Source: Deinococcus grandis (GTDB lineage Bacteria; Deinococcota; Deinococci; Deinococcales; Deinococcaceae). Taken from it: DNA of 64,000 nucleotides. Position numbers and translations under genes: made by a program. The notes beneath the pieces are model-generated. The model saw nothing but the letters and a program-made list of their open reading frames with translations, made no database searches and was not told the origin of the DNA. Every line of letters begins with the position of its first letter. Within the stretch, counting starts at the first letter, position 1. The DNA is taken from assembly GCF_001485435.1 (NCBI RefSeq), contig NZ_BCMS01000002.1, forward strand, positions 88,426 through 152,425, read 5' to 3'. Below are positions 16,727-53,045 of the stretch, piece by piece.

Positions 16727-17685
16727 GAGGCTCCCGCAGCAGGAAGTGGGGCGCGCTGCTGGCCGTGCCGGGCAGCAGGAGGCTGACCGGGCTGGTACTG
16801 GGCAGGCTGGTGCTGGCCGGACTGGTGCTGGGCGGGCTGCTGGGCGGCTGCGCGCGGCCGCCGCAGGACGACCTGCGCCTCACACCCCTGCCGACGCTGA
16901 CCCTTCAGGAAGGTCGGCTGCGTGTGACGGGCGAGGGACCGCTGCGCTTGGCCTGCGACACCCCGGCCGGGCCGGTCGTGCACATGCTGGCACGGGCGGG
17001 GCAGGTGCCGGTCCCACCCGGCGCGCTGGCCTGCGAGGCGTCCCGGCCCGGTCACGCCGAGGGCCGGGTGACCGTGGCCCTCACGCCCACGCCGACACCA
17101 TCAACGCCCCCGTCAGCGCCGACACCTCTGCCCCCCATCCCTGCGGCGCGCGGCACCCTGCGCGTCACCCCTGTCACCCTGCGACTGGGACAGCGCGAGG
17201 TGTGGACAGTCACCGCCGACCTGCGCGGCCCGGACGGTCGCGTGGCACCCGACGGCACGCCGGTCACGCTGAGCGCCGCCTCCGGCGCCGAGCGGCTCAG
17301 CGCGGTGCGCCTGACCGTCAACGGCGTCGCCCGCTGGCAGCTCACGCCCGGCGCGCCCGGCCCGTTCACGTTCACCGCCCGGAGTGGCGACTGGCAGGGC
17401 CGCGCCGCCGCCGTCGCCGCCACCGGGGTGCTCGGCGGGCGGCCGCGCGCGGTGTTCACCGGGCAGGTCCTGACCCTCGGGCCGCTGCGCTGGCAGGACG
17501 GCGCCCTCCCGGACGACGGAACCCCGGTGCGGCTGCGCGCCCTGACCCGCGCGGGGACCGTGGTGTGGTCCGCGGACGTGACGGTCGCCGCCGGGCAGGT
17601 CCGCGCCAAGGTGCCCCGGGTGCGCGGCGCCGTGACCCTCAGCGCGGAACTCGCGGGCAGCGAGGTGAGGTTCGCGTGGCCCTGA
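16723..17685 (+). CDS. Lipoprotein with Pro/Thr-rich linker and beta-rich repeats
   Basis: The GTG start overlaps the upstream stop (GTGA). The signal peptide and lipobox are LVLGGLLGG-C. The 15955 frame is chosen over the Arg-rich 16746 frame. Confidence 0.55.
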   Translation: MRGSRSRKWGALLAVPGSRRLTGLVLGRLVLAGLVLGGLLGGCARPPQDDLRLTPLPTLTLQEGRLRVTGEGPLRLACDTPAGPVVHMLARAGQVPVPPGALACEASRPGHAEGRVTVALTPTPTPSTPPSAPTPLPPIPAARGTLRVTPVTLRLGQREVWTVTADLRGPDGRVAPDGTPVTLSAASGAERLSAVRLTVNGVARWQLTPGAPGPFTFTARSGDWQGRAAAVAATGVLGGRPRAVFTGQVLTLGPLRWQDGALPDDGTPVRLRALTRAGTVVWSADVTVAAGQVRAKVPRVRGAVTLSAELAGSEVRFAWP

Positions 17686-17822
17686 TACGGATTCCGTTTG
17701 TTTCGCCAACAATCCGGAACTTCACCGGATTGTTGGCTCCACGTCCGGAACCCGTTTTTCTCCTTCTCGCATCCGCTCGGATTGAACGGGCTGTGCAGCC
17801 CATTCAATCGGAGTCCGTATGA
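17683..17822. mobile_element. MITE-like small non-coding repeat, copy A (subfamily 1), flanked by TGA/TGA
   Basis: Core 17686-17819: TACGGATTCCGTTTGTTTCG...CATTCAATCGGAGTCCGTA, with terminal inverted repeats and the internal IR CCAACAATCCGG/CCGGATTGTTGG. The left TGA is the stop of the lipoprotein gene. The right junction TA+TGA creates the ATG of the next gene. Confidence 0.8.
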
Positions 17823-22202: not shown

Positions 22203-23072
22203 ATGAACACTATGGCCAGAACCAAGACCAGAACCGAGACCACCCCCGCCCCCAGCCTGCACCTCAGCTTCGACGCGCTGATGGCCACCGCGGCCGTCGA
22301 CAGCCAGATCGGCGCGCTGGTCGAGAGTGGCGCCGACGTCCAGACCATCGATCAGGCCCTGACCGGGGCGCTCGTCACCGCGCAGGGCCGCTGGGGTCTG
22401 GGCCTGCATCACCTGCGACACGAGGCCCGCCAGGACGGCGAGGACATCGTGTTTCTGGTGGACGGCCGCCCCGCCGCGCGCCTCAGTGAAGGGTCCGCCG
22501 CCCTGGCCGCCGCGTACGAGGCGATGCGCGCCACGGACGAGCGCGGCCTGAGCCTGTGGGGCGCGCTCGGCGACGGCTGGCGCGTGCCGGGCGACGCGCC
22601 CGCCGCCCGCCTGAAGGTCCTGATCGAGGACGCCCGCGATTTCGAGACCCACTGGACGGCCGCCCGCGGCGACGCCCACCACCGCACGTGGCGTCACGGC
22701 GACACGTTGACCGTCGAGGTCGCGCGGCCCGCCAGCGCCGAGGCGGCCCTGTCGGACGCGGCGTGGGACGTCATCACGAGCATCAAGGACCGGACCTTCC
22801 AGCGGGAACTGATGCGCCGCAGCGAGGAACTGGGCATGCTGGGCGCGCTGCTGGGCGCGCGGCACGCCGGGGCGCGCGGGAACCTGAACCTGATGCCGGA
22901 CGCGCACTTCACCGTGCAGGCGGCCGTGCACAGCGTCACCGGCCCCGACGGCCGCAACGCCGAGACGCACCGGACCCTGCTGCGCGCCGCGACCGCCGAA
23001 CTCGACGAGTTGCAGTCGCACACGACGCGTCAGCTGGCCGAGGTGCTGCGTCACGGCCTGAACAACCGCTGA
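22203..23072 (+). CDS. Hypothetical protein (289 aa)
   Basis: ATG at 22203 (Met67 of ORF 22005..23072), preceded by a lower-GC promoter region. No motif recognised. Confidence 0.45.
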
Positions 23073-23330: not shown

Positions 23331-24260
23331 GTGACCCCGCTGGTCGTGGGGTTGGACCTGGGGGGCAGCAGCAGCAAGTGGCAGGTACGCCGGGGCGCAG
23401 AGGTGCTCGGGGCGGGGGCGGGGCCGCCCGTGACGGCCACGCTGCTGGCCACGGAGGCCGGGCGCGTGAACCTGCGGGCGCTGCGGGAGGCGCTCCCGGC
23501 GGGGATCGGGGCGGTGTGGGCGGGCCTGCCGGGGTTCGGGGGGTCACGGCCGGACGCGGCGGCCCTGCACGCGCAGCTGGCGGCGGGCCTCGGGGTAGAG
23601 GCCGGGCGGCTGCATCTGGAGAGTGATCTGGATCTGGCGTTCCGCGCGCACCTGCGTCCGGGCGGGGGCGTGCTGGTGTATGCCGGGACCGGGAGCGTGG
23701 CGTATCACGTCGCGGTGGGGGGGCAGGTGCTGCGCGCGGGTGGGCACGGGTTCCACATCGATGACGACGGCGCGGGGTACGCGCTGGGCCGGGCGGCGCT
23801 GCGCCGGGTGACCGGGCAGCTCGACCGGGGGGACGCGCCGGGTGGGGCGCTGGCGCTGGAGGTGCGGGCCGTGACGGGCGGGCTGGACTGGGACGCGTTG
23901 CGGCAGTTCACGTACGGGCAGCCGGGCGCGGCGGCGGTGGCGCGGCTGGCGCCGGCGGTGGGTCGCGCGGCGGACGCGGGTGACGTGGTGGCGCGCGCGA
24001 TTCTGCGGGACGCGGCGCAGGCGCTGGCGGCGCTGGCGGTGACGGTGCAGCGGCGCCTGCCGGAGGCGGTGCCGGTGGTGGCGACCGGGGGGGCGCTGCG
24101 GGTCAGTCCGCTGTTCGGGGCCGAGGTGCGCCGCGCGTGTCCGGGGGTGGTGATCCAGCAGCGGGATCACGCGGCGATGGCGGCCCTGGCGGCCGCGCAG
24201 CTGGTGCCCGAGGCGTGGGGCGGCGCCGCGATGCCCCCGGGCTTCACCCCTGGATCATGA
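23331..24260 (+). CDS. BadF/BadG/BcrA/BcrD-type ATPase (N-acetylglucosamine kinase-like, ASKHA fold)
   Basis: VVGLDLGGSSSKW is the phosphate-1 motif, and VYAGTGSVAY and HIDDDGAGYALG are the second ASKHA motifs. The start is uncertain (in-frame GTG at 23331; the ORF opens at 23169). Confidence 0.55.
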   Translation: MTPLVVGLDLGGSSSKWQVRRGAEVLGAGAGPPVTATLLATEAGRVNLRALREALPAGIGAVWAGLPGFGGSRPDAAALHAQLAAGLGVEAGRLHLESDLDLAFRAHLRPGGGVLVYAGTGSVAYHVAVGGQVLRAGGHGFHIDDDGAGYALGRAALRRVTGQLDRGDAPGGALALEVRAVTGGLDWDALRQFTYGQPGAAAVARLAPAVGRAADAGDVVARAILRDAAQALAALAVTVQRRLPEAVPVVATGGALRVSPLFGAEVRRACPGVVIQQRDHAAMAALAAAQLVPEAWGGAAMPPGFTPGS

Positions 24261-33545: not shown

Positions 33546-33683
33546 TCATACGGATTCCGTTTGTTTCGTTGACAGCTCGGAACACCACCGATCTGTCAAC
33601 GACACGTCCGGAACCCGTTCTGCTCCTACTCGCTCCGCTCGGATTGAACGGCTTTGCAAGCCATTCAACCGGAGTCCGTCTCA
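33546..33683. mobile_element. MITE-like repeat, copy B1 (subfamily 2), flanked by TCA/TCA
   Basis: Core 33549-33680 with the subfamily-2 internal IR GTTGACAGCTCGG/CCGATCTGTCAAC. It shares its right TCA with copy B2. Confidence 0.8.
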
Positions 33684-33818
33684 TACGGATTCCGTTTATT
33701 TCGTTGACAGATCGGAACGCCACCGATCTGTCAACTCCACGTCCGGAATCCGTTTCTCTCCCACTCGCTCCGCTCGGATTGAACGGCTTTGTAAGCCATT
33801 CAATCGGAGTCCGTATCA
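33681..33818. mobile_element. MITE-like repeat, copy B2 (subfamily 2), in tandem with B1, flanked by TCA/TCA
   Basis: Core 33684-33815. The right TCA (33816-33818) is the stop codon of the P-type ATPase gene on the minus strand. Confidence 0.8.
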
Positions 33819-36353: not shown

Positions 36354-36386
36354 CCCGCTCCCGTCGGCCCGAACCCGCAGAGGTGA

Positions 36387-36527
36387 TCATACGGACTCCG
36401 TCTGTTTCGCCAACAATCCGGAACCTCACCGGATTGCCGGCTCCACGTCCGGAGGGGTGTTTCTCTCCTTCTCGCATCCGCTCGGACCCAGCGGGCTTTG
36501 CAGCCCATTCAATCGGAATCCGCATCA
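36387..36527. mobile_element. MITE-like repeat, copy C (subfamily 1), flanked by TCA/TCA
   Basis: Core 36390-36524 (TACGGACTCCGTCTGTTTCGCCAACAATCCGG...ATCGGAATCCGCA). The right TCA is the stop codon of the minus-strand GAF-GGDEF gene. Confidence 0.8.
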
Positions 36528-39216: not shown

Positions 39217-40013
39217 ACGTCACCCCGACCCGACCCGCATCCCGTCCTCGTTCCCGGAGTCATACCCGGCTGGCACTGCTGGCCGCGCTGCTGCTCGCGC
39301 CACCGGCGGGCGCGGCGTCCCTGACGGTGTTCGCCGCGTCGTCCCTGACCGACGCCTTCACCGAGATCGGCCGGGCCTTCGACGCGCGGACCGGGCACCG
39401 CACGACCTTCCAGTTCGCGGGGTCGCAGGTGCTGCGCGCGCAGCTGGAGGGCGGCGCCCGGGCGGACGTGTTCGCCAGCGCGAACGACGCGCAGTTCACG
39501 CCGCTGCTGGGGTCGGTGGTCGCGGCGCGTGAGGTGTTCGCCCGCAACCGCCTGACCGTGATCGCCCCGGCGGGCAGCGCCCGGGTGCGGTCCCTGCGTG
39601 ACCTGACGGGCCCGGGGGTGCGACTGGTGCTGGCCGCGCCGAACGTCCCGGTCGGGGACTACACCCGGCGGATGCTCGCGGCGGTGGACCGCTCGGGCAC
39701 GTACGGGAAGGACTTCGCGGCGCGCGCCCTGCGGAACGTCGTCAGCGAGGAGGGGAACGTGCGGCAGGTGGCGCTGAAGGTCAGTCTGGGCGAGGCGGAC
39801 GCGGCGGTCGTGTATGCCAGCGACGTGACCCCCGCCCTGAAGAAGACCGTGCGGGTGGTGCCGCTGCCCACCCGCTTCAACCAGACGGCGGCGTACCCGC
39901 TGGGCGTGGTGCGGGGCAGCGCGAATGCCGACGCGGCGCGGTCCTTCGCGGCCTTCGTACAGGGGAAGGAGGGACAGGCGATCCTGCGCCGCTGGGGGTT
40001 CCTGAGTCCGTGA
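39213..40013 (+). CDS. modA: Molybdate ABC transporter substrate-binding protein
   Basis: Signal peptide, SLTVFAASSLTDAF, and the ModA-type fold motifs (VFASAN, ADAAVVYASDV). Confidence 0.8.
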   Translation: MNVTPTRPASRPRSRSHTRLALLAALLLAPPAGAASLTVFAASSLTDAFTEIGRAFDARTGHRTTFQFAGSQVLRAQLEGGARADVFASANDAQFTPLLGSVVAAREVFARNRLTVIAPAGSARVRSLRDLTGPGVRLVLAAPNVPVGDYTRRMLAAVDRSGTYGKDFAARALRNVVSEEGNVRQVALKVSLGEADAAVVYASDVTPALKKTVRVVPLPTRFNQTAAYPLGVVRGSANADAARSFAAFVQGKEGQAILRRWGFLSP

Positions 40014-40096
40014 TGAGCCCGTCGTCCGTGTCCCCCGCCGCCGTGTCCACTGCCGCCCAGCTGAACCGGCGGCCCGTCCTTCGCCGGGACGTCAGG

Positions 40097-40236
40097 TGAG
40101 ACGGATTCCGTTTGTTTCGCCAACAATCCGGAACTTCACCGGATTGCCGGCTCCACGTCCGGAACCCGTTTCTCTCTTACTCGCCTCCGCTCGGACCCAG
40201 CGGGCTTTGCAGCCCATTCAACCGGAGTCCGTATGA
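40097..40236. mobile_element. MITE-like repeat, copy D (subfamily 1), between modA and modB, flanked by TGA/TGA
   Basis: Core 40100-40233. The first base is G instead of T. The right junction TA+TGA provides the ATG of modB at 40233. Confidence 0.75.
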
Positions 40237-41039
40237 GACGCGCGGGGCTGCCGTGGCCGGGCGTGCTGCTGGGGGCGCTGTTCGCGGCGTTCCTGCTGCT
40301 GCCCACGCTGGTGCTGCTCTCGCGCGGGCTGGGCGCGGATTTCTGGGTGACGCTGCGCAGCCCGGCGGTGCTGGACGCGCTGCGGGTGAGCCTGTGGACG
40401 ACCGGGGTGACGCTGCTCGTCACGGTGGTGACGGGCACGCCCCTGGCGTTCCTGCTGGCCCGGCGGGAGTTTCCCGGGCGGGCGCTGCTGGACGCGCTGC
40501 TGGACCTGCCGGTGGTGCTGCCGCCCGTCGTGGCGGGCCTGGGGCTGCTGCTGACCTTCGGGCGGGGCGGGCTGCTGGGCCCGGGGCTGGAACTGGCGGG
40601 CGTCAGTCTGGCGTTCTCCCCGGCGGCGGTGGTGCTCGCGCAGCTGTTCACGGCGGCGCCGTTCTACCTGCGCGCGGCGAAGGCGGGATTCGCGGCCGTA
40701 GACCGGGACGCCGAGGCGGCGGCCCTGACGGACGGCGCGGGCCGCTGGGCGGCGTTCCGGTTCATCACGTGGCCGCTGGCGTTCCCGTTCCTGCTGGAGG
40801 GGCTGGTCCTGACCTGGGCGCGGGCGCTGGGGGAGTTCGGCGCGACGATCCTGTTCGCCGGGTCGCTGCAGGGCCGCACGCGGACGGTGACGCTGGCGAT
40901 CTACGGGGCGCTGGACAGCGACCTGGGGCCCGCGCTGGTGCTGTCGGCGGTGATGGTGGTGGTGGCGTTCTCGGTGCTGCTCGCCGTGCGGGTGCTGGCG
41001 GCGCGGCGCGACCGGCTGGACACCAGCAGCCCAGGATGA
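40233..41039 (+). CDS. modB: Molybdate ABC transporter permease
   Basis: ModB/CysT-type permease with the EAA-like loop (ALGEFGATILFAGSLQGRTRTV) and five to six TM segments. Confidence 0.8.
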   Translation: MRRAGLPWPGVLLGALFAAFLLLPTLVLLSRGLGADFWVTLRSPAVLDALRVSLWTTGVTLLVTVVTGTPLAFLLARREFPGRALLDALLDLPVVLPPVVAGLGLLLTFGRGGLLGPGLELAGVSLAFSPAAVVLAQLFTAAPFYLRAAKAGFAAVDRDAEAAALTDGAGRWAAFRFITWPLAFPFLLEGLVLTWARALGEFGATILFAGSLQGRTRTVTLAIYGALDSDLGPALVLSAVMVVVAFSVLLAVRVLAARRDRLDTSSPG

Positions 41040-41134
41040 CCCACCCCCACGGCGGCGTGAAGGTGCTCCGGCCGCCACAGTCACCGCGGTTCTCCGGTGT
41101 GTCGAGGGGCTCCCTCGGGCCACCTGAAACGAGC

Positions 41135-41272
41135 TGATACGGATTCCGTTTGTTTCGTTGACAGATCGGAACACCACCGATCTGCCAACTCCACGTCCGG
41201 AACCCGTTTCTCTCCTGCTCGCTCCGCTCGGGTTGAAAGATTTTGCAAACCTTTCAACCGGAGTCCGTATGA
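41135..41272. mobile_element. MITE-like repeat, copy E (subfamily 2), downstream of modB, flanked by TGA/TGA
   Basis: Core 41138-41269. It occupies the position where modC would be expected. Confidence 0.8.
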
Positions 41273-41419
41273 GTCGCGGAGCTGCGGAGCAACGCGAGCA
41301 GCAGCGAACCGGGTCGCGGGTTCTGAACGGTGCCAGTGGAATCCGTATGCTCCCCCCCGACGCCCGGGGCGGAGTTTGCGCATGGCGTGGCCCGCGCGAG
41401 GGGCTACGATGTGGGCGGC

Positions 41420-46129: not shown

Positions 46130-47097
46130 TCGAACCTCACGCGCGGGTCGGCCCAGGCCAGGGCCAGGTCGCTCAGGAGGTTGCCGATCAGGAGCAGCAG
46201 GGCGCTGAACATCAGCAGGGTCATGGCCACGAACTGGTCCTTGTTCAGCAGGGCGTCGTACAGGTACGGGCCGATGGTCGGGAGGTTCAGGACGATGCTG
46301 GCGATGATCGTGCCACTGATCAGGCTGGGCAGGCTCAGGCCCGCGAGGCTGATCAGGGGGTTCACGGCGTTGCGGACCGCGTGCCCCCACAGGACCCGCC
46401 GGCCGCCAGCGCCCTTGGCGCGCGCGGTGCGGATGAAGTCCTGCGACAGGACGTCCAGCATGGAGGCGCGCATCTGCCGCATCAGGCCCGCCACGCCTTC
46501 CAGGCCGATGGCGATCATGGGAATCCACAGGTGCGCGAGCAGATCCAGCACGCGGGCGACACTCCAGGGCGCGTCGATCATGTCCGGGCTGAACAGGCCG
46601 CCCACGTTCGTGCCGCCCAGGGCGAGCACCAGCGCGATCAGGAGCAGCGCCACCAGGAAGTCCGGCGTGGCGAGGCTCAGGTACCCCAGGAAGTTCAGGG
46701 CGGCGCTGCGTTTGCGGTGGCGGTGCAGCGCGGTGTAGATACCTAGCGGGACCGCCACCACCCAGGAGACCAACAGGGTCAGCACGGCCAGGAAGACCGT
46801 CCAGCCCAGCCGTTCCCAGATCAGGCTGCTCACGGGGCGGCTGTTGGCGAACGAGTACCCGAAGTCACCGTGGAGCACGATGCCCTTCACCCAGTTCAGG
46901 TACTGCATCCAGACCGGCTGATCCAGGCCCAGCTGCCGGGTCATGGCCTGCAGGGCCTCGGGAGTCACGCGCGGATCCTCGCGGTACTGGTCGAGGAAAC
47001 TGCCGGGTTGCAGCTGGATGACCGCGAAACACACCACGCTGATGAGCAGCAGCGTGGGAATCATGCCCAGCACGCGGCGGACGGTGTACGTCAGCAT
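46126..47097 (-). CDS. ABC transporter permease, DppB/OppB-type
   Basis: MLTYTVRRVLGMIPTLLLISVVCFAVIQL and an EAA motif region. 323 aa. Confidence 0.85.
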   Translation of the reverse strand: MLTYTVRRVLGMIPTLLLISVVCFAVIQLQPGSFLDQYREDPRVTPEALQAMTRQLGLDQPVWMQYLNWVKGIVLHGDFGYSFANSRPVSSLIWERLGWTVFLAVLTLLVSWVVAVPLGIYTALHRHRKRSAALNFLGYLSLATPDFLVALLLIALVLALGGTNVGGLFSPDMIDAPWSVARVLDLLAHLWIPMIAIGLEGVAGLMRQMRASMLDVLSQDFIRTARAKGAGGRRVLWGHAVRNAVNPLISLAGLSLPSLISGTIIASIVLNLPTIGPYLYDALLNKDQFVAMTLLMFSALLLLIGNLLSDLALAWADPRVRFE

Positions 47098-49869: not shown

Positions 49870-51032
49870 CCGCCCCGCGCGTGCTGGGCCTGATGAGCGG
49901 CACCAGCGCCGACGGCATCGACGCGGCCCTGCTGGAACTGCCCGGCTGGCCGGCGCTGGGCGGGGGCGCGCCCCTGAAGCTGCCCGGCGGCGCGCCCCGC
50001 GGCCGGGTGGTGGCGCACACCTTCACGCCGTACCCGCCGGACCTGCGCGCCGCCGTGCTGCGCGCCATGCGGGACGAGGGCACGCCGGGCGAACTGACCC
50101 AGCTGCACTGGGCACTGGGTGAGGCCTTCGCGCAGGCGGCCGCGCCGCTGGCCCGCGACGCCGACCTGATCGCCAGTCACGGCCAGACCGTACAGCACCA
50201 CCCCCGGCCGGACGCGGCGCGCGGCTGGCACCGCCCCGCCACGCTGCAACTGGGCGAGGCGGCCCTGATCGCGCAGGCCACCGGCCGGGCGGTCGTGAGC
50301 GACTTCCGCCCGGCCGACCTGGCCGCCGGGGGGGTGGGGGCGCCGCTGGTGCCGTTCGCGGACTGGGCGCTGTTCTCGCAGCCCGGCGTGACCCGGCTGC
50401 TGCTGAACCTGGGCGGGATCGCCAACCTGACCCTGCTGCCCGGCACCGATCCGGCGCGCGTGCAGGCCTTCGACACCGGCCCCGCCAACTGCCTGCTGGA
50501 CGAGATCGCCGCCCGGGCGGGCCTCCCCTGCGACGAGGGCGGCGCGCTGGCCCGCGCGGGCCAGGTGCATGAACCCACCCTGCGCGCGTGGCTGGCCCAC
50601 CCGGAACTCACCGCGCCCCCACCGAAAGCCACCGGGCGGGAGGTCTGGACGCTGCCGCGCCTGCCCGCCCCCGCCCCCCTGAGCACCGAGGATCTCGCCG
50701 CCACCGCCACCGAGTTCACGGCCCGGACGGTCACCGCCGCACTGCGCTGGCTGCCCGCCGCCCCGCATGAGGTGATCGTGGCGGGCGGCGGGGCGCGGAA
50801 CCCGGCGCTGCGCGCGGCTCTGACGCGCACCCTGGCCCCGGCCCCGCTGATCACGTTCGCGGACCTGGGCTGGGACGCCCGGGGCTTCACCGACGCCACC
50901 CGCGAGGCGGCCGCCTTCGCGTTCCTGGGCTACGCGCACGCGCAGGGCTGGCCCAGCACCCTCCCCCACACGACCGGAGCGGCGCACGCCGCCCGCACCG
51001 GCAAGTGGAGCCCTGCTCCCGGAGCGTCATGA
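49866..51032 (+). CDS. anmK: Anhydro-N-acetylmuramic acid kinase
   Basis: [18 protein letters not shown] is the AnmK N-terminal motif. 388 aa. The GTG start overlaps the regulator stop (GTGA). Confidence 0.8.
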
Positions 51033-51988: not shown

Positions 51989-52992
51989 TCCCGGACCGCA
52001 CCGCGGCGCTGCTGCGCGCCGCCGTCGGGCCCGGCGGGCCCAGCGCGGCGGCCCTGGGGGTCGTCACGGCCAGCGGCGAGCGGGACACCCTGATCGTGGG
52101 CCACACCCGGCACGGCGGTCCGGCGCTGACCGGGGGCGAGTGGTGGGATCTGGCCAGCCTGACCAAACCGCTGTTCACCGCGCGCGAGGTGTTGCGTGCC
52201 GCCGAGGAGGGCCTGCTCGACCTGGACGATCCCCTATCGCGGCACCTGCCGGACCTGGGGTGGATGCAGGAGACGCCGCTGCGGGAGCGCACGCTGCGGC
52301 AGCTGCTCACCCACACCGCCGGGCTGCCGGCCTGGACACCGATGTACACCTGGGGCGACGCCGCGACCATCCGCGCCCGCTTCCTTCAGGAACCCTGGGC
52401 CATGACCGACCCCGGTTCCGTCCGGTACTCGGACCTGGGCTACGGCCTGCTGGGCCGCGTGCTGGAACGCGTCCGCACCTCCTCCCTGCGTGCCTTTCAC
52501 CTCGACCCCGGCCTGACCTTCACGCCGGACGCCGGGCAGACGGTATCCACGGAAGTCTGCGCGTGGCGCGAGCGGCTCCTGACCGGCGAGACCCACGACG
52601 AGAATGCCGCCGCGCTGGGCGGCGTGGCCGGGCACGCGGGCCTGTTCGGCACCCTGAACGGCACGCTGGCGCAGGCCGAGCGGCTCCTGCGTGGCGGGTG
52701 GCTGTCCCCGGCGGCTCAGCAGCTCGCCATGACGCCGCAGGTGCCGGAACGGACCCTGGCGTTCGTGCACGCCTGCCCCGGCTGGAGCGGCGGCAGCCTG
52801 TGCAGCCCGCAAGCGGCCGGGCACACGGGCTTCACCGGCACCGGCCTGTGGATCGATCCGACGCGTGGGCTGGCGTGGGTGCTGCTCACGAACCGCGTGC
52901 ACCCAACCCGCCATACCACGTTCGACATCCAGGGCCTGCGGCGCGCGGTGGGTAACACCCTGGCCGCGCAGGACACGCCCAGAGTCACGTGA
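51985..52992 (+). CDS. Serine hydrolase of the beta-lactamase / penicillin-binding-protein family (class-C-like)
   Basis: SxxK motif LASLTKPLF plus a downstream YSD/HTGFTG-type region. GTGA overlap with murQ. Its stop TGA is the first three bases of the hairpin repeat. Confidence 0.75.
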   Translation: MIPDRTAALLRAAVGPGGPSAAALGVVTASGERDTLIVGHTRHGGPALTGGEWWDLASLTKPLFTAREVLRAAEEGLLDLDDPLSRHLPDLGWMQETPLRERTLRQLLTHTAGLPAWTPMYTWGDAATIRARFLQEPWAMTDPGSVRYSDLGYGLLGRVLERVRTSSLRAFHLDPGLTFTPDAGQTVSTEVCAWRERLLTGETHDENAAALGGVAGHAGLFGTLNGTLAQAERLLRGGWLSPAAQQLAMTPQVPERTLAFVHACPGWSGGSLCSPQAAGHTGFTGTGLWIDPTRGLAWVLLTNRVHPTRHTTFDIQGLRRAVGNTLAAQDTPRVT

Positions 52993-53045
52993 TACGGACT
53001 CCGATTGAACGGACTTTGCAGCCCATTCAATCGGAGTCCGTATCA
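52990..53045. repeat. Minimal hairpin copy (F) of the MITE-like repeat: the two 23-bp terminal inverted repeats joined by a 10-nt loop
   Basis: TGATACGGACTCCGATTGAACGG-ACTTTGCAGC-CCATTCAATCGGAGTCCGTATCA, with one mismatch in the arms. It lies between convergent genes and is a likely bidirectional terminator. Confidence 0.75.

Follow-up and report, generated by a model that had tools for sequence, protein, structure and literature searches.

In Deinococcus grandis, a repeat of 134 bp lies exactly between the stop codon of one gene and the start codon of the next, with the same triplet, TGA, on both of its sides. This raises the questions of what kind of element the repeat is, how such an element comes to sit at gene boundaries, and whether a start codon that begins in its terminus is genuine.

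The repeat family in the window

The window, that is, the whole stretch of 64 kb that was analysed, is part of the D. grandis megaplasmid pDEGR-1. It contains six full MITE copies (132–135 bp, c1 to c6 all in the same orientation) and one 50-bp mini copy:

c1: 17686..17819, plus strand, 134 bp, CCAACAATCCGG subfamily; TGA at 17683-17685 and 17820-17822
c2: 33549..33680, plus strand, 132 bp, GTTGACAG subfamily; TCA at 33546-33548 and 33681-33683
c3: 33684..33815, plus strand, 132 bp, head-to-tail with c2; right TCA at 33816-33818, the TCA at 33681-33683 being common to c2 and c3
c4: 36390..36524, plus strand, 135 bp; TCA at 36387-36389 and 36525-36527
c5: 40100..40233, plus strand, 134 bp; TGA at 40097-40099 and 40234-40236
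c6: 41138..41269, plus strand, 132 bp, intergenic; TGA at 41135-41137 and 41270-41272
c7: 52993..53042, plus strand, 50-bp mini copy; TGA at 52990-52992, TCA at 53043-53045

The first-pass annotation had placed seven copies here and all were located again; a repeat search and nhmmer gave this identical set, with none additional in the window, and 28 places on pDEGR-1 are reported as matching the MITE. The motif TACGGAYTCCG, with at most one mismatch, occurs 18 times in the window versus 1.13 times expected from shuffles. The element is short, multi-copy and without coding capacity, its interior being made of two palindromic modules, and the mini copy c7 corresponds to module B alone (right-type terminus, hairpin, right terminus). 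The division into two internal subfamilies also holds, with three copies each in the window. Of the terminal inverted repeats, earlier put at about 23 bp, what stands is an 11-bp inverted repeat, TACGGAYTCCG at one end and CGGARTCCGTA at the other, with a single Y/R mismatch; pairs 1–11 are 85–99% complementary across 168 copies, except for this mismatch at position 7, and the longer repeat is imperfect, agreeing at about 16 of 23 positions. The window copies have nearest neighbours that are at most 90% identical and by this measure are old. In D. caeni, 34 of 78 copies have a nearest neighbour at least 97% identical, and these near-identical copies point to recent activity.

Target-site duplication and empty sites

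Identical triplets flank six of the seven window copies, as had been noticed (TGA/TGA at c1, c5 and c6; TCA/TCA at c2, c3 and c4), while the flanks of c7, TGA and TCA, are palindromic and not direct. A census of at least 173 unique full-length copies in other Deinococcus genomes, sampled mostly from D. caeni and D. saxicola, gives identical TNA flanks in 132 of the 173 copies listed (TGA 57, TCA 51, TAA 12, TTA 12). Among the 152 listed pairs in which both flanks are TNA, 87% are identical versus about 35% expected if the middle bases were independent. Such direct, co-varying flanks bear out the proposed 3-bp target-site duplication; the reading that they are simply part of a palindromic terminal repeat is ruled out, with combinations of the TGA/TCA type in just 12 of the 173 copies listed. 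The target is wider than the TSA first suggested: the duplication is TNA, with TAA and TTA together making up 18% of duplications, not far from the 27% that they contribute to the available non-genic sites. No extended target motif beyond TNA was found, only a weak S-TNA-S bias and an avoidance of T at position −1. The same bias and avoidance are also given by GC-rich third codon positions. Pattern matches in Verrucomicrobiota, Clostridia, Uhrbacteria, Methylacidiphilales and Haloarculaceae were set aside as chance, with no full element among them; a full copy does occur on a 629-bp contig binned as Hyphomonas, which is probably mis-binned.

Orthologous sites without the element confirm insertion polymorphism, a single TGA standing at empty sites of D. 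actinosclerus, D. aquaticus and a Deinococcus MAG. At the c1 site, D. actinosclerus reads ...cGTGGCCCTGAcccgg... where D. grandis has GTGGCCCTGA-MITE-TGAgaccc, the empty site being cGTGGCCCTGAccc, and D. aquaticus likewise has the c1 locus without the element. Filled sites L102 and L088 (D. caeni or MAG) match empty site L062. Partial empty sites exist for c4 and c5. For c4, the orthologue in D. actinosclerus has a TCA stop at the corresponding position, without the element; for c5, modA overlaps modB by GTGA in both D. actinosclerus and D. taeanensis, and what lies to the right of the TGA in this GTGA is homologous to the right flank of c5. Because the empty sites hold TGA and no TA (...CCCTGAccc...), the duplication is 3 bp, and the classical IS630 reading of CGGA...TCCG flanked by TA is ruled out.

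An IS630-family element with matching ends

An IS5/Harbinger-type partner had been anticipated, and a 3-bp TNA duplication is characteristic of PIF/Harbinger and, within the IS5 family, of the IS1031 group. The MITE, which has this duplication, would on that account be a Tourist-like derivative of an IS5 or PIF-Harbinger-type transposon, and pDEGR-1 does carry an IS5-family transposase, DEGR_32170. However, the one IS5-family element examined on pDEGR-1 (AP021850.1 12277-13227) has ends, TAAAGTGCGTCTGAAAA, that are unrelated to those of the MITE, and no IS5-type (DDE_Tnp_1/4) partner with matching ends came to light. The ends of the 1,275-bp and 1,075-bp two-ORF ISs of the same megaplasmid are unrelated as well. 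Matching ends together with TNA flanks occur in just one kind of element, a 1,107-bp IS that encodes an IS630-family transposase and is present in two copies, one each on pDEGR-1 and pDEGR-2 of the same strain:

AP021850.1 35193-36299: 1,107-bp IS copy with TCA/TCA flanks
AP021851.1 about 70350-71456: 1,107-bp IS copy with TGA/TGA flanks

The two copies are 99.6% identical and have the same terminus as the MITE, TACGGACTCCGATTAA.... Their joined ORFs match NF033545 (IS630 family transposase) at 195.5 bits with a cut-off of 100, over positions 7–293 of 299, and the transposase gives Pfam HTH_33 and DDE_3 matches. Furthermore, the same terminal repeat, together with 3-nt direct repeats of TGA, TAA or TCA, has been published for ISDrpg7/8 of the IS630 family in D. 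radiopugnans DY59 (PMC10017437). The likeness to the IS5 (IS1031-group) and Tourist/PIF-Harbinger MITEs thus lies in the 3-bp TNA, and the transposase family is an unrelated one; we give almost no credence to an origin from that side.

The kinship with the IS630 elements is close at the ends. The published ISDrpg7/8 repeat is matched at 16/16 positions by the D. grandis IS and at 15/16 by the right end of the MITE, and the ends of IS and MITE are identical at 18/20 and 22/27 nt in the same relative orientation. The duplications of the MITE include the TGA, TCA and TAA of ISDrpg7/8 and also TTA. On the other hand, the MITE is about 133 bp long with no ORF, and past the 20–27 terminal nt its interior shows no recognisable derivation from the 1,107-bp IS. 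A search of 120 loci for a partner, by orphan termini, by terminal-repeat pairs 0.5–3.5 kb apart with matching TNA and by multi-copy ORFs, returned only pairs of separate MITEs. The D. grandis transposase is split over two ORFs that show no evident slippage site of the A-run type described for ISDra3/6; the split may be programmed, or the IS may be defective.

Stop codons at the insertion sites

In the window, the flanking triplet is an annotated stop codon at four copies, one fewer than first counted. The left TGA of c1 is the stop of DEGR_35180 and that of c7 the stop of the esterase DEGR_34910; on the minus strand, the right TCA of c3 is the stop (TGA) of the P-type ATPase DEGR_35060 and that of c4 the stop of the diguanylate cyclase DEGR_35040. 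c6 has no genuine stop or start codon at either flank. As for the ORF 40112-41137, whose stop is the TGA to the left of c6, it is a modB shadow frame and not a gene, its GC at codon positions 1/2/3 being 0.89/0.74/0.57 versus 0.77/0.53/0.96 for modB.

Across the copies listed, the suggested preference for stop codons is well above chance. Of the 101 non-genic MITE sites listed, 50 are stops, versus 12.5% for non-genic TNA as a whole (odds ratio 6.9, p about 1e-19). This and the following stop-codon figures depend on a crude gene test by GC at codon positions, with an 'intergenic' null class that may include unrecognised genes. Overall, a genuine stop adjoins about 40–50% of the copies listed, about four times the expectation for non-genic TNA sites. 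The duplication is the in-frame stop of an inward-reading gene at 67 of 166 eligible ends, and TCA ends fall in frame 56 times versus 5 and 3 times in the two shifted frames, again among the copies listed. Although genes hold 80% of TNA triplets, just 6 of 129 MITE sites listed lie inside continuous coding sequence. Among the non-genic copies listed, about half are located away from stops.

The association could have arisen through selection among insertions, or else through active targeting of gene ends by the transposase or a host factor, which would favour their DNA or transcription context beyond the bare TNA. The fourfold enrichment of stops over other non-genic TNA in the copies listed is what targeting would give, and head-to-tail pairs with one common duplication recur, hinting at local site preference. 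However, the target shows no motif beyond the weak bias around TNA described above, and the listed non-genic copies away from stops argue in the same direction. In a genome of 70% GC, moreover, intergenic TNA occurs chiefly in promoters and regulatory sequences, from which insertions would be eliminated. We therefore regard active targeting as unlikely and favour selection.

Start codons at the right junction

The right junction, ...GGAGTCCGTA followed directly by TGA, consists of a Shine-Dalgarno sequence (GGAG), 5 nt and an ATG. Such junction ATGs had been taken as the starts of ORFs at 17819, 40233 and 41269, and at the same time as suspect. The first two are annotated starts, 17819-17821 of DEGR_35170 (c1) and 40233-40235 of modB, DEGR_35010 (c5), in each case with no earlier start codon between it and the preceding in-frame stop. 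The ATG at 41269 begins an ORF of just 57 codons that lacks coding composition, and the next annotated gene runs from 41387 in another frame. The suspicion falls away for 17819 and 40233, both of which are in frame with the ancestral N-termini of relatives and have GGAG 5 nt before them. In D. actinosclerus, for example, the start GTG GCC CTG A.. is in frame with ATG A.. at 17819 of D. grandis. Judged by frame, position and orthologues, the junction ATG is likely the real start of both genes.

Plausible N-termini, signal peptides and an epimerase (MTTGPKNILLTGSAGFVGSH) among them, follow 12 junction ATGs in the copies listed; of these ATGs, 10 belong to the GGAG end and 2 to the opposite end. 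Of the elements listed, eight combine a left-hand stop with a right-hand start, and the opposite arrangement does not occur (binomial p about 0.008); the GGAG end points towards the downstream gene in 8/8 operon-internal insertions listed. Since the element ends in GGAGTCCGTA and duplicates TGA, one insertion in a stop/start overlap of coupled genes would regenerate both the upstream stop and a downstream Shine-Dalgarno-N5-ATG, and the element could thus live inside operons without polar damage. We suggest, tentatively, that the right terminus could be a portable translation-initiation module, with the orientation bias as a footprint of selection, and that this might be general to the IS630 subgroup with TA...TA ends and TNA duplications.

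Folding and a possible role in RNA

The structure of the element brings up a different reading: its main function would be regulatory, as a structured RNA or DNA module comparable to REP/BIME or ERIC sequences (for instance a palindrome bound by a protein or a stabiliser of 3' UTRs), with its spread secondary and its flanking triplets belonging to the palindrome. Copies fold strongly (z about −7 to −8), and many of them lie in 3' UTRs. RNAalifold drew only a poor consensus for the forward strand from the raw alignment of 168 copies, so pairs were counted on a hand-specified structure; on this structure, the pairing of hairpin 1 is kept through double changes at at least six pairs (CG/TA, GC/AT, TA/AT). 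A.C mismatches, which are G.U on the opposite strand, number 270 versus 25 G.T, and the reverse strand folds better. The wobble asymmetry, however, reflects few inherited changes and not 270 independent events, and the strand transcribed from the adjacent gene shows no significant bias (40 versus 27 among the copies listed). No Rfam family matched at the gathering score, with just chance hairpin matches at E above 0.3. A terminator role is ruled out, with no U tract after either hairpin on either strand, and the only terminator-like match is at the c2/c3 junction. The flanks, furthermore, are direct and co-varying, not palindromic, and both empty sites and a matching IS exist. We consider a primarily regulatory module highly improbable; the MITE may have a secondary role at the RNA level.

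Proposed mechanism and relation to known elements

We consider it very probable that these MITEs are moved in trans by IS630 elements of the ISDrpg7/8 type, insert at TNA and are sorted by selection, their junctions rebuilding stop codons as well as ribosome-binding site and ATG. First of all, the DDE transposase of such a Deinococcus IS would bind the common termini TACGGAYTCCG... and integrate at any T-N-A with a 3-nt stagger, the repair of which would double the triplet. Second, every TNA offers a stop on one strand or the other, TGA and TAA directly and TCA and TTA as complements. Third, selection would purge insertions within genes or promoters, so that survivors would gather exactly at stop codons, the stop being kept intact by the duplication. 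Finally, with a TGA duplication the right junction reads GGAG-N5-ATG-A, and a TGA insertion overlapping or just inside the next start would thus rebuild a ribosome-binding site and an in-frame ATG.

Within IS630-Tc1-mariner, the Stowaway/Tc1-mariner and classical IS630 elements belong to the same superfamily (DDE_3). They duplicate the dinucleotide TA, whereas the MITE duplicates 3-bp TNA. Closer parallels are found in cyanobacteria, where ISAva6 (TGA flanks) and a Stanieria IS630 homologue (TAA flanks) have TA...TA ends and TNA flanks as in the MITE, with transposases 33–40% identical to that of D. grandis. Nezha and other cyanobacterial IS630-related MITEs share terminal repeats and direct repeats with IS630-type ISs and have filled and empty sites between species (PMC3184786). 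These are elements of another phylum with unrelated DNA sequence. Neisseria REP2, Correia elements and Borrelia inverted-repeat sequences are likewise dispersed repeats, from which a neighbouring gene obtains a promoter, a ribosome-binding site and/or an ATG (PMC3184786); the MITE differs in that its start codon is a hybrid of the element's last A and the TG of the target duplication, and in that the same duplication preserves the stop of the upstream gene.

Within the genus, a decayed copy lies beside a TAA stop in D. radiodurans, where copies are about 78% identical and degenerate. SNR1-9 of that species were reportedly described by Makarova in 1999/2001, and a MITE is said to have been found transposing into thyA by Mennecier in 2006. 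The D. radiodurans SNRs are 60–215 bp long, mosaic and intergenic and are regarded as mobile (PMC1978522; PMC11276467), and the MITE is also short, mosaic and intergenic. Given the decayed copy, a resemblance to the SNRs is plausible, the comparison being with their description. We found no paper in the open literature describing this MITE.

Implications

An IS630-derived MITE is a kind of element already known, and the present family is a well-supported addition that leaves the understanding of MITEs unchanged in kind. Through this family, a class of small Deinococcus repeats is linked to an IS630 subgroup that makes 3-bp and not 2-bp duplications. Target choice, in which TNA is a stop on one strand, would together with selection place a mobile element exactly at gene boundaries, and where a ribosome-binding site and start codon have been lost, the terminus of an element can take their place. 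Gene-calling software and comparative work need to take the MITE into account, so as neither to dismiss its junction ATGs as errors nor to count its shadow ORFs as genes. In Deinococcus genomes, host and transposon each contribute half of many stop codons, and of some start codons too.

The repeat family and its copies in the window

The ~133-bp repeat is a MITE in the full sense, as the first-pass annotation had suggested, with all of the testable defining features found. The element is built from two palindromic modules with a spacer between them. All seven copies reported in the window were recovered where that annotation had placed them, and repeat finding and a profile search, which both recover the same copies, yielded no further ones in the window; the terminal motif occurs there 18 times, against 1.1 expected.

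Window copies of the MITE family (c1-c6 are 132-135 bp and share one common orientation) and the modules of the element
c1, 17686-17819, flanks TGA/TGA
c2, 33549-33680, flanks TCA/TCA
c3, 33684-33815, flanks TCA/TCA
c4, 36390-36524, flanks TCA/TCA
c5, 40100-40233, flanks TGA/TGA
c6, 41138-41269, flanks TGA/TGA
c7, 52993-53042, mini copy of 50 bp consisting of module B only, flanks TGA/TCA
Module A, element positions ~1-73, left terminus, hairpin 1 and an internal inverted copy of the terminus
Module B, element positions ~91-134, internal terminus-like arm, loop and right terminus

In BLAST, a 140-bp stretch containing c1 is 100% identical to megaplasmid pDEGR-1 of D. grandis ATCC 43672 (AP021850.1, reverse strand), and this query has 28 matching places on pDEGR-1 plus matches on 14 other Deinococcus plasmids. 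The window (GC ~72%) differs from AP021850.1 only in a few G-run lengths, by single bases, and in one 25-nt stretch (window ~23540-23720 and ~50650-50680), and therefore represents the same replicon in another assembly or version; the gene context of the copies follows the annotation of AP021850.1. The DNA repair gene pprA lies at 22212-23072, ~4.4 kb downstream of c1, and pDEGR-1 also has genes whose annotation is phage-tail or type VI-like (baseplate, tail protein, Rhs).

Target-site duplication and empty sites

A left-end pattern scan of species-representative genomes gave at least 120 stretches, of which almost every one is Deinococcus sequence (D. caeni, D. saxicola, D. marmoris, two genomes that are isolates or MAGs, and a MAG with the label D. 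hopiensis), and a profile search of these gave at least 173 unique full-length copies. Among the matches listed, 132 of 173 carry the identical triplet on both sides (TGA 57, TCA 51, TAA 12, TTA 12), pairs with TNA on both flanks are identical in 87% of cases versus ~35% expected under independence, and only 12 of 173 show the palindromic combinations that a triplet belonging to the inverted repeat would give. The duplication is therefore TNA: the direct 3-bp duplication proposed at first is upheld, while its restriction to TSA is not. The middle base is G or C in 82% of duplications, close to the 73% available in non-genic DNA of the same genomes.

Comparison with relatives reveals insertion polymorphism. 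First, at the c1 site D. actinosclerus reads ...cGTGGCCCTGAcccggcc... where D. grandis has ...GTGGCCCTGA, the element and TGAgaccc..., and D. aquaticus also lacks the element. Second, at the c4 site the D. actinosclerus diguanylate cyclase has its stop TCA at exactly the same position, the sequence beyond being unrelated. Third, at the c5 site modA and modB overlap as GTGA in D. actinosclerus and D. taeanensis, and the right flank of c5 is homologous to the sequence right of that TGA. Finally, the fetched loci hold two further clean pairs (L102 and L088 filled, L062 empty). A 2-bp TA duplication is excluded, because TA occurs in none of the empty sites.

Between the modA stop (GTGA, 40010-40013) and c5 lie 86 nt (40014-40099) that start and end with TGA, are missing in D. 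actinosclerus and D. taeanensis and are unique within all fetched sequence; they may be what is left of an earlier insertion that duplicated a TNA. Reverse-complementary flanks, TGA on one side and TCA on the other, occur in 12 of 173 full copies among the matches listed and in c7, the pattern that recombination between two copies in opposite orientation would leave after inverting the DNA between them. A single TCA is common to c2 and c3, arranged head-to-tail (33681-33683), and pairs sharing one TNA, head-to-tail or end-to-end, recur in several genomes (AP021850.1 ~46275-46289; locus L084 ~3423), as if a later element had gone into the triplet already duplicated by an earlier one. Nesting is also seen in a D. 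saxicola copy within another of the family (L035, 2132-2304), and a D. marmoris copy is broken after position 63 by an unrelated insertion (L013, 332-394).

An IS630-family partner

No autonomous partner was found within the at least 120 scanned loci, and the search was then extended to the first 200 kb of pDEGR-1. There, the ends of an IS5-family element and of two other IS types are unrelated to the MITE. An IS with matching ends, 1,107 bp long (AP021850.1, 35193-36299), is bounded by two orphan termini and the same triplet on both flanks, and belongs to the IS630 family rather than to the IS5/Harbinger type first guessed. When its two ORFs (130 and 169 aa) are joined through a -1 shift, the NCBIfam IS630-family transposase model gives 195.5 bits (cut-off 100), and Pfam HTH_33/HTH_32 and DDE_3 also match. 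Its ends, TACGGACTCCGATTAAAAGG and TACGGATTCCGATTAATTCG, have 18/20 nt in common with the MITE right end and 22/27 nt with the left end. pDEGR-2 carries a second copy at 99.6% identity (AP021851.1, ~70350-71456); one copy is flanked by TCA/TCA, the other by TGA/TGA. Both have the identical transposase split, around ...TTCAAATCAAAGTCCTGA, which may reflect programmed frameshifting or a shared defect; a long A run is described at the split in ISDra3/6, whereas the D. grandis IS has no such run.

ISDrpg7/8 of D. radiopugnans (IS630 family) have the TIR TACGGACTCCGATTAA and 3-nt direct repeats TGA/TAA/TCA (PMC10017437). More distant homologues, with transposases 33-40% identical to that of D. grandis, also have TA...TA ends: ISAva6 on Trichormus variabilis plasmid A (L135, 153-1317) with TGA/TGA flanks, and a Stanieria plasmid element (L136, 182-1329) with TAA/TAA flanks. 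Duplication of a 3-bp TNA thus characterises a subgroup of IS630, and may define one that crosses phyla.

Folding of the element

Compared with shuffled sequences, the copies fold much more strongly (z -3.7 to -7.9), and in 168 distinct copies among the matches listed the pairing of hairpin 1 is kept via double changes at at least six pairs. The two internal subfamilies described earlier do exist, as two compensated versions of this stem. The same alignment, again among the matches listed, contains 270 A.C mismatches (G.U on the other strand) versus 25 G.T, with A.C columns at 23-24/48-49 and 102/117. The MITE strand as written is antisense to the transposase, and its reverse strand folds better; the stems would be intact as RNA only on the transposase-sense strand. 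Since the counts probably reflect a few inherited changes, we treat this asymmetry as a lead and not as a result. The hairpins have no terminator-like U tract, and the MITE has no Rfam match.

Insertion at stop codons

Read on one strand or the other, any TNA is a stop codon. We used a crude coding test (an open frame >150 nt with GC3 > GC1 > GC2, which is not real annotation), by which, among the matches listed, the duplication is the in-frame stop of a gene that runs toward the element at 67 of 166 eligible ends, TCA ends being in frame in 56 cases versus 5 and 3 in the shifted frames. With the elements removed in silico, stops by this crude test make up 50 of 101 non-genic insertion sites among the matches listed, versus 12.5% of all non-genic TNA (OR 6.9, p ~1e-19), which bears out the proposed association with stops; just 6 of 129 sites lie inside continuous coding sequence, though genic positions account for 80% of TNA triplets. 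Active targeting of gene ends would also place copies at stops, and we consider it unlikely. Around the census sites there is no strong wider target motif, just a weak S-TNA-S bias and a shortage of T at -1, and target specificity combined with purifying selection is thus the simplest reading of the excess: insertion at a stop codon would keep the stop intact and spare promoters. A decayed D. radiodurans copy adjoins a TAA stop. In the window, the flank is a stop codon in four of the five cases first listed; in the fifth, the ORF ending at c6 (40112-41137) is a shadow frame of modB, with GC of 0.89/0.74/0.57 at codon positions 1/2/3.

Start codons at the junction

A right junction with a TGA duplication, ...CGGAGTCCGTA|TGA, supplies GGAG, 5 nt and ATG. 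Such an ATG had been assigned to three ORFs and, as lying in a repeat terminus, called suspect. The assignment holds at 17819 (DEGR_35170) and 40233 (modB) and fails at 41269, which opens only a 57-codon ORF without coding composition, the next gene beginning at 41387 in another frame. For DEGR_35170 and modB, the starts look genuine rather than suspect, because no other start codon lies between an in-frame stop and the junction ATG, because this ATG is in frame with the orthologue N-terminus (GTG GCC CTG A.. in D. actinosclerus for DEGR_35170; the modA/modB GTGA overlap for modB), and because junction ATGs in the census lie mostly at the GGAG end, with one orientation favoured. Among the matches listed, 12 junction ATGs have plausible N-termini, 10 at the GGAG end and 2 at the other, usually GGAA, and eight elements combine an upstream stop at the left end with a downstream start at the right end, versus none in reverse (p ~0.008). 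On the minus strand at 36386-36413, pointing outward from the left end of c4, is a promoter-like TTGGCG-16 nt-TATGAT whose -10 hexamer combines the TA at the element's end with the duplicated TGA and a single host base, a possible junction promoter.

Activity, range and what is known

Among the matches listed, 34 of 78 D. caeni copies have a neighbour at least 97% identical, which indicates recent amplification; the window copies, with nearest neighbours at most 90% identical, are older by this measure. Full copies among the matches listed are confined to Deinococcus, bar one 629-bp contig that is probably mis-binned. The small non-coding repeats of D. radiodurans have long been known and considered mobile (PMC1978522; PMC11276467), Neisseria REP2 is one known case of repeats that donate an RBS and ATG (PMC3184786), and for Deinococcus IS630 elements the literature already has the partner family, the termini and the duplication of 3 nt (PMC10017437). 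This MITE family beyond D. radiodurans, a quantified excess at stop codons, and the hybrid start codon formed by element and duplication, with its orientation bias, appear to be undescribed.
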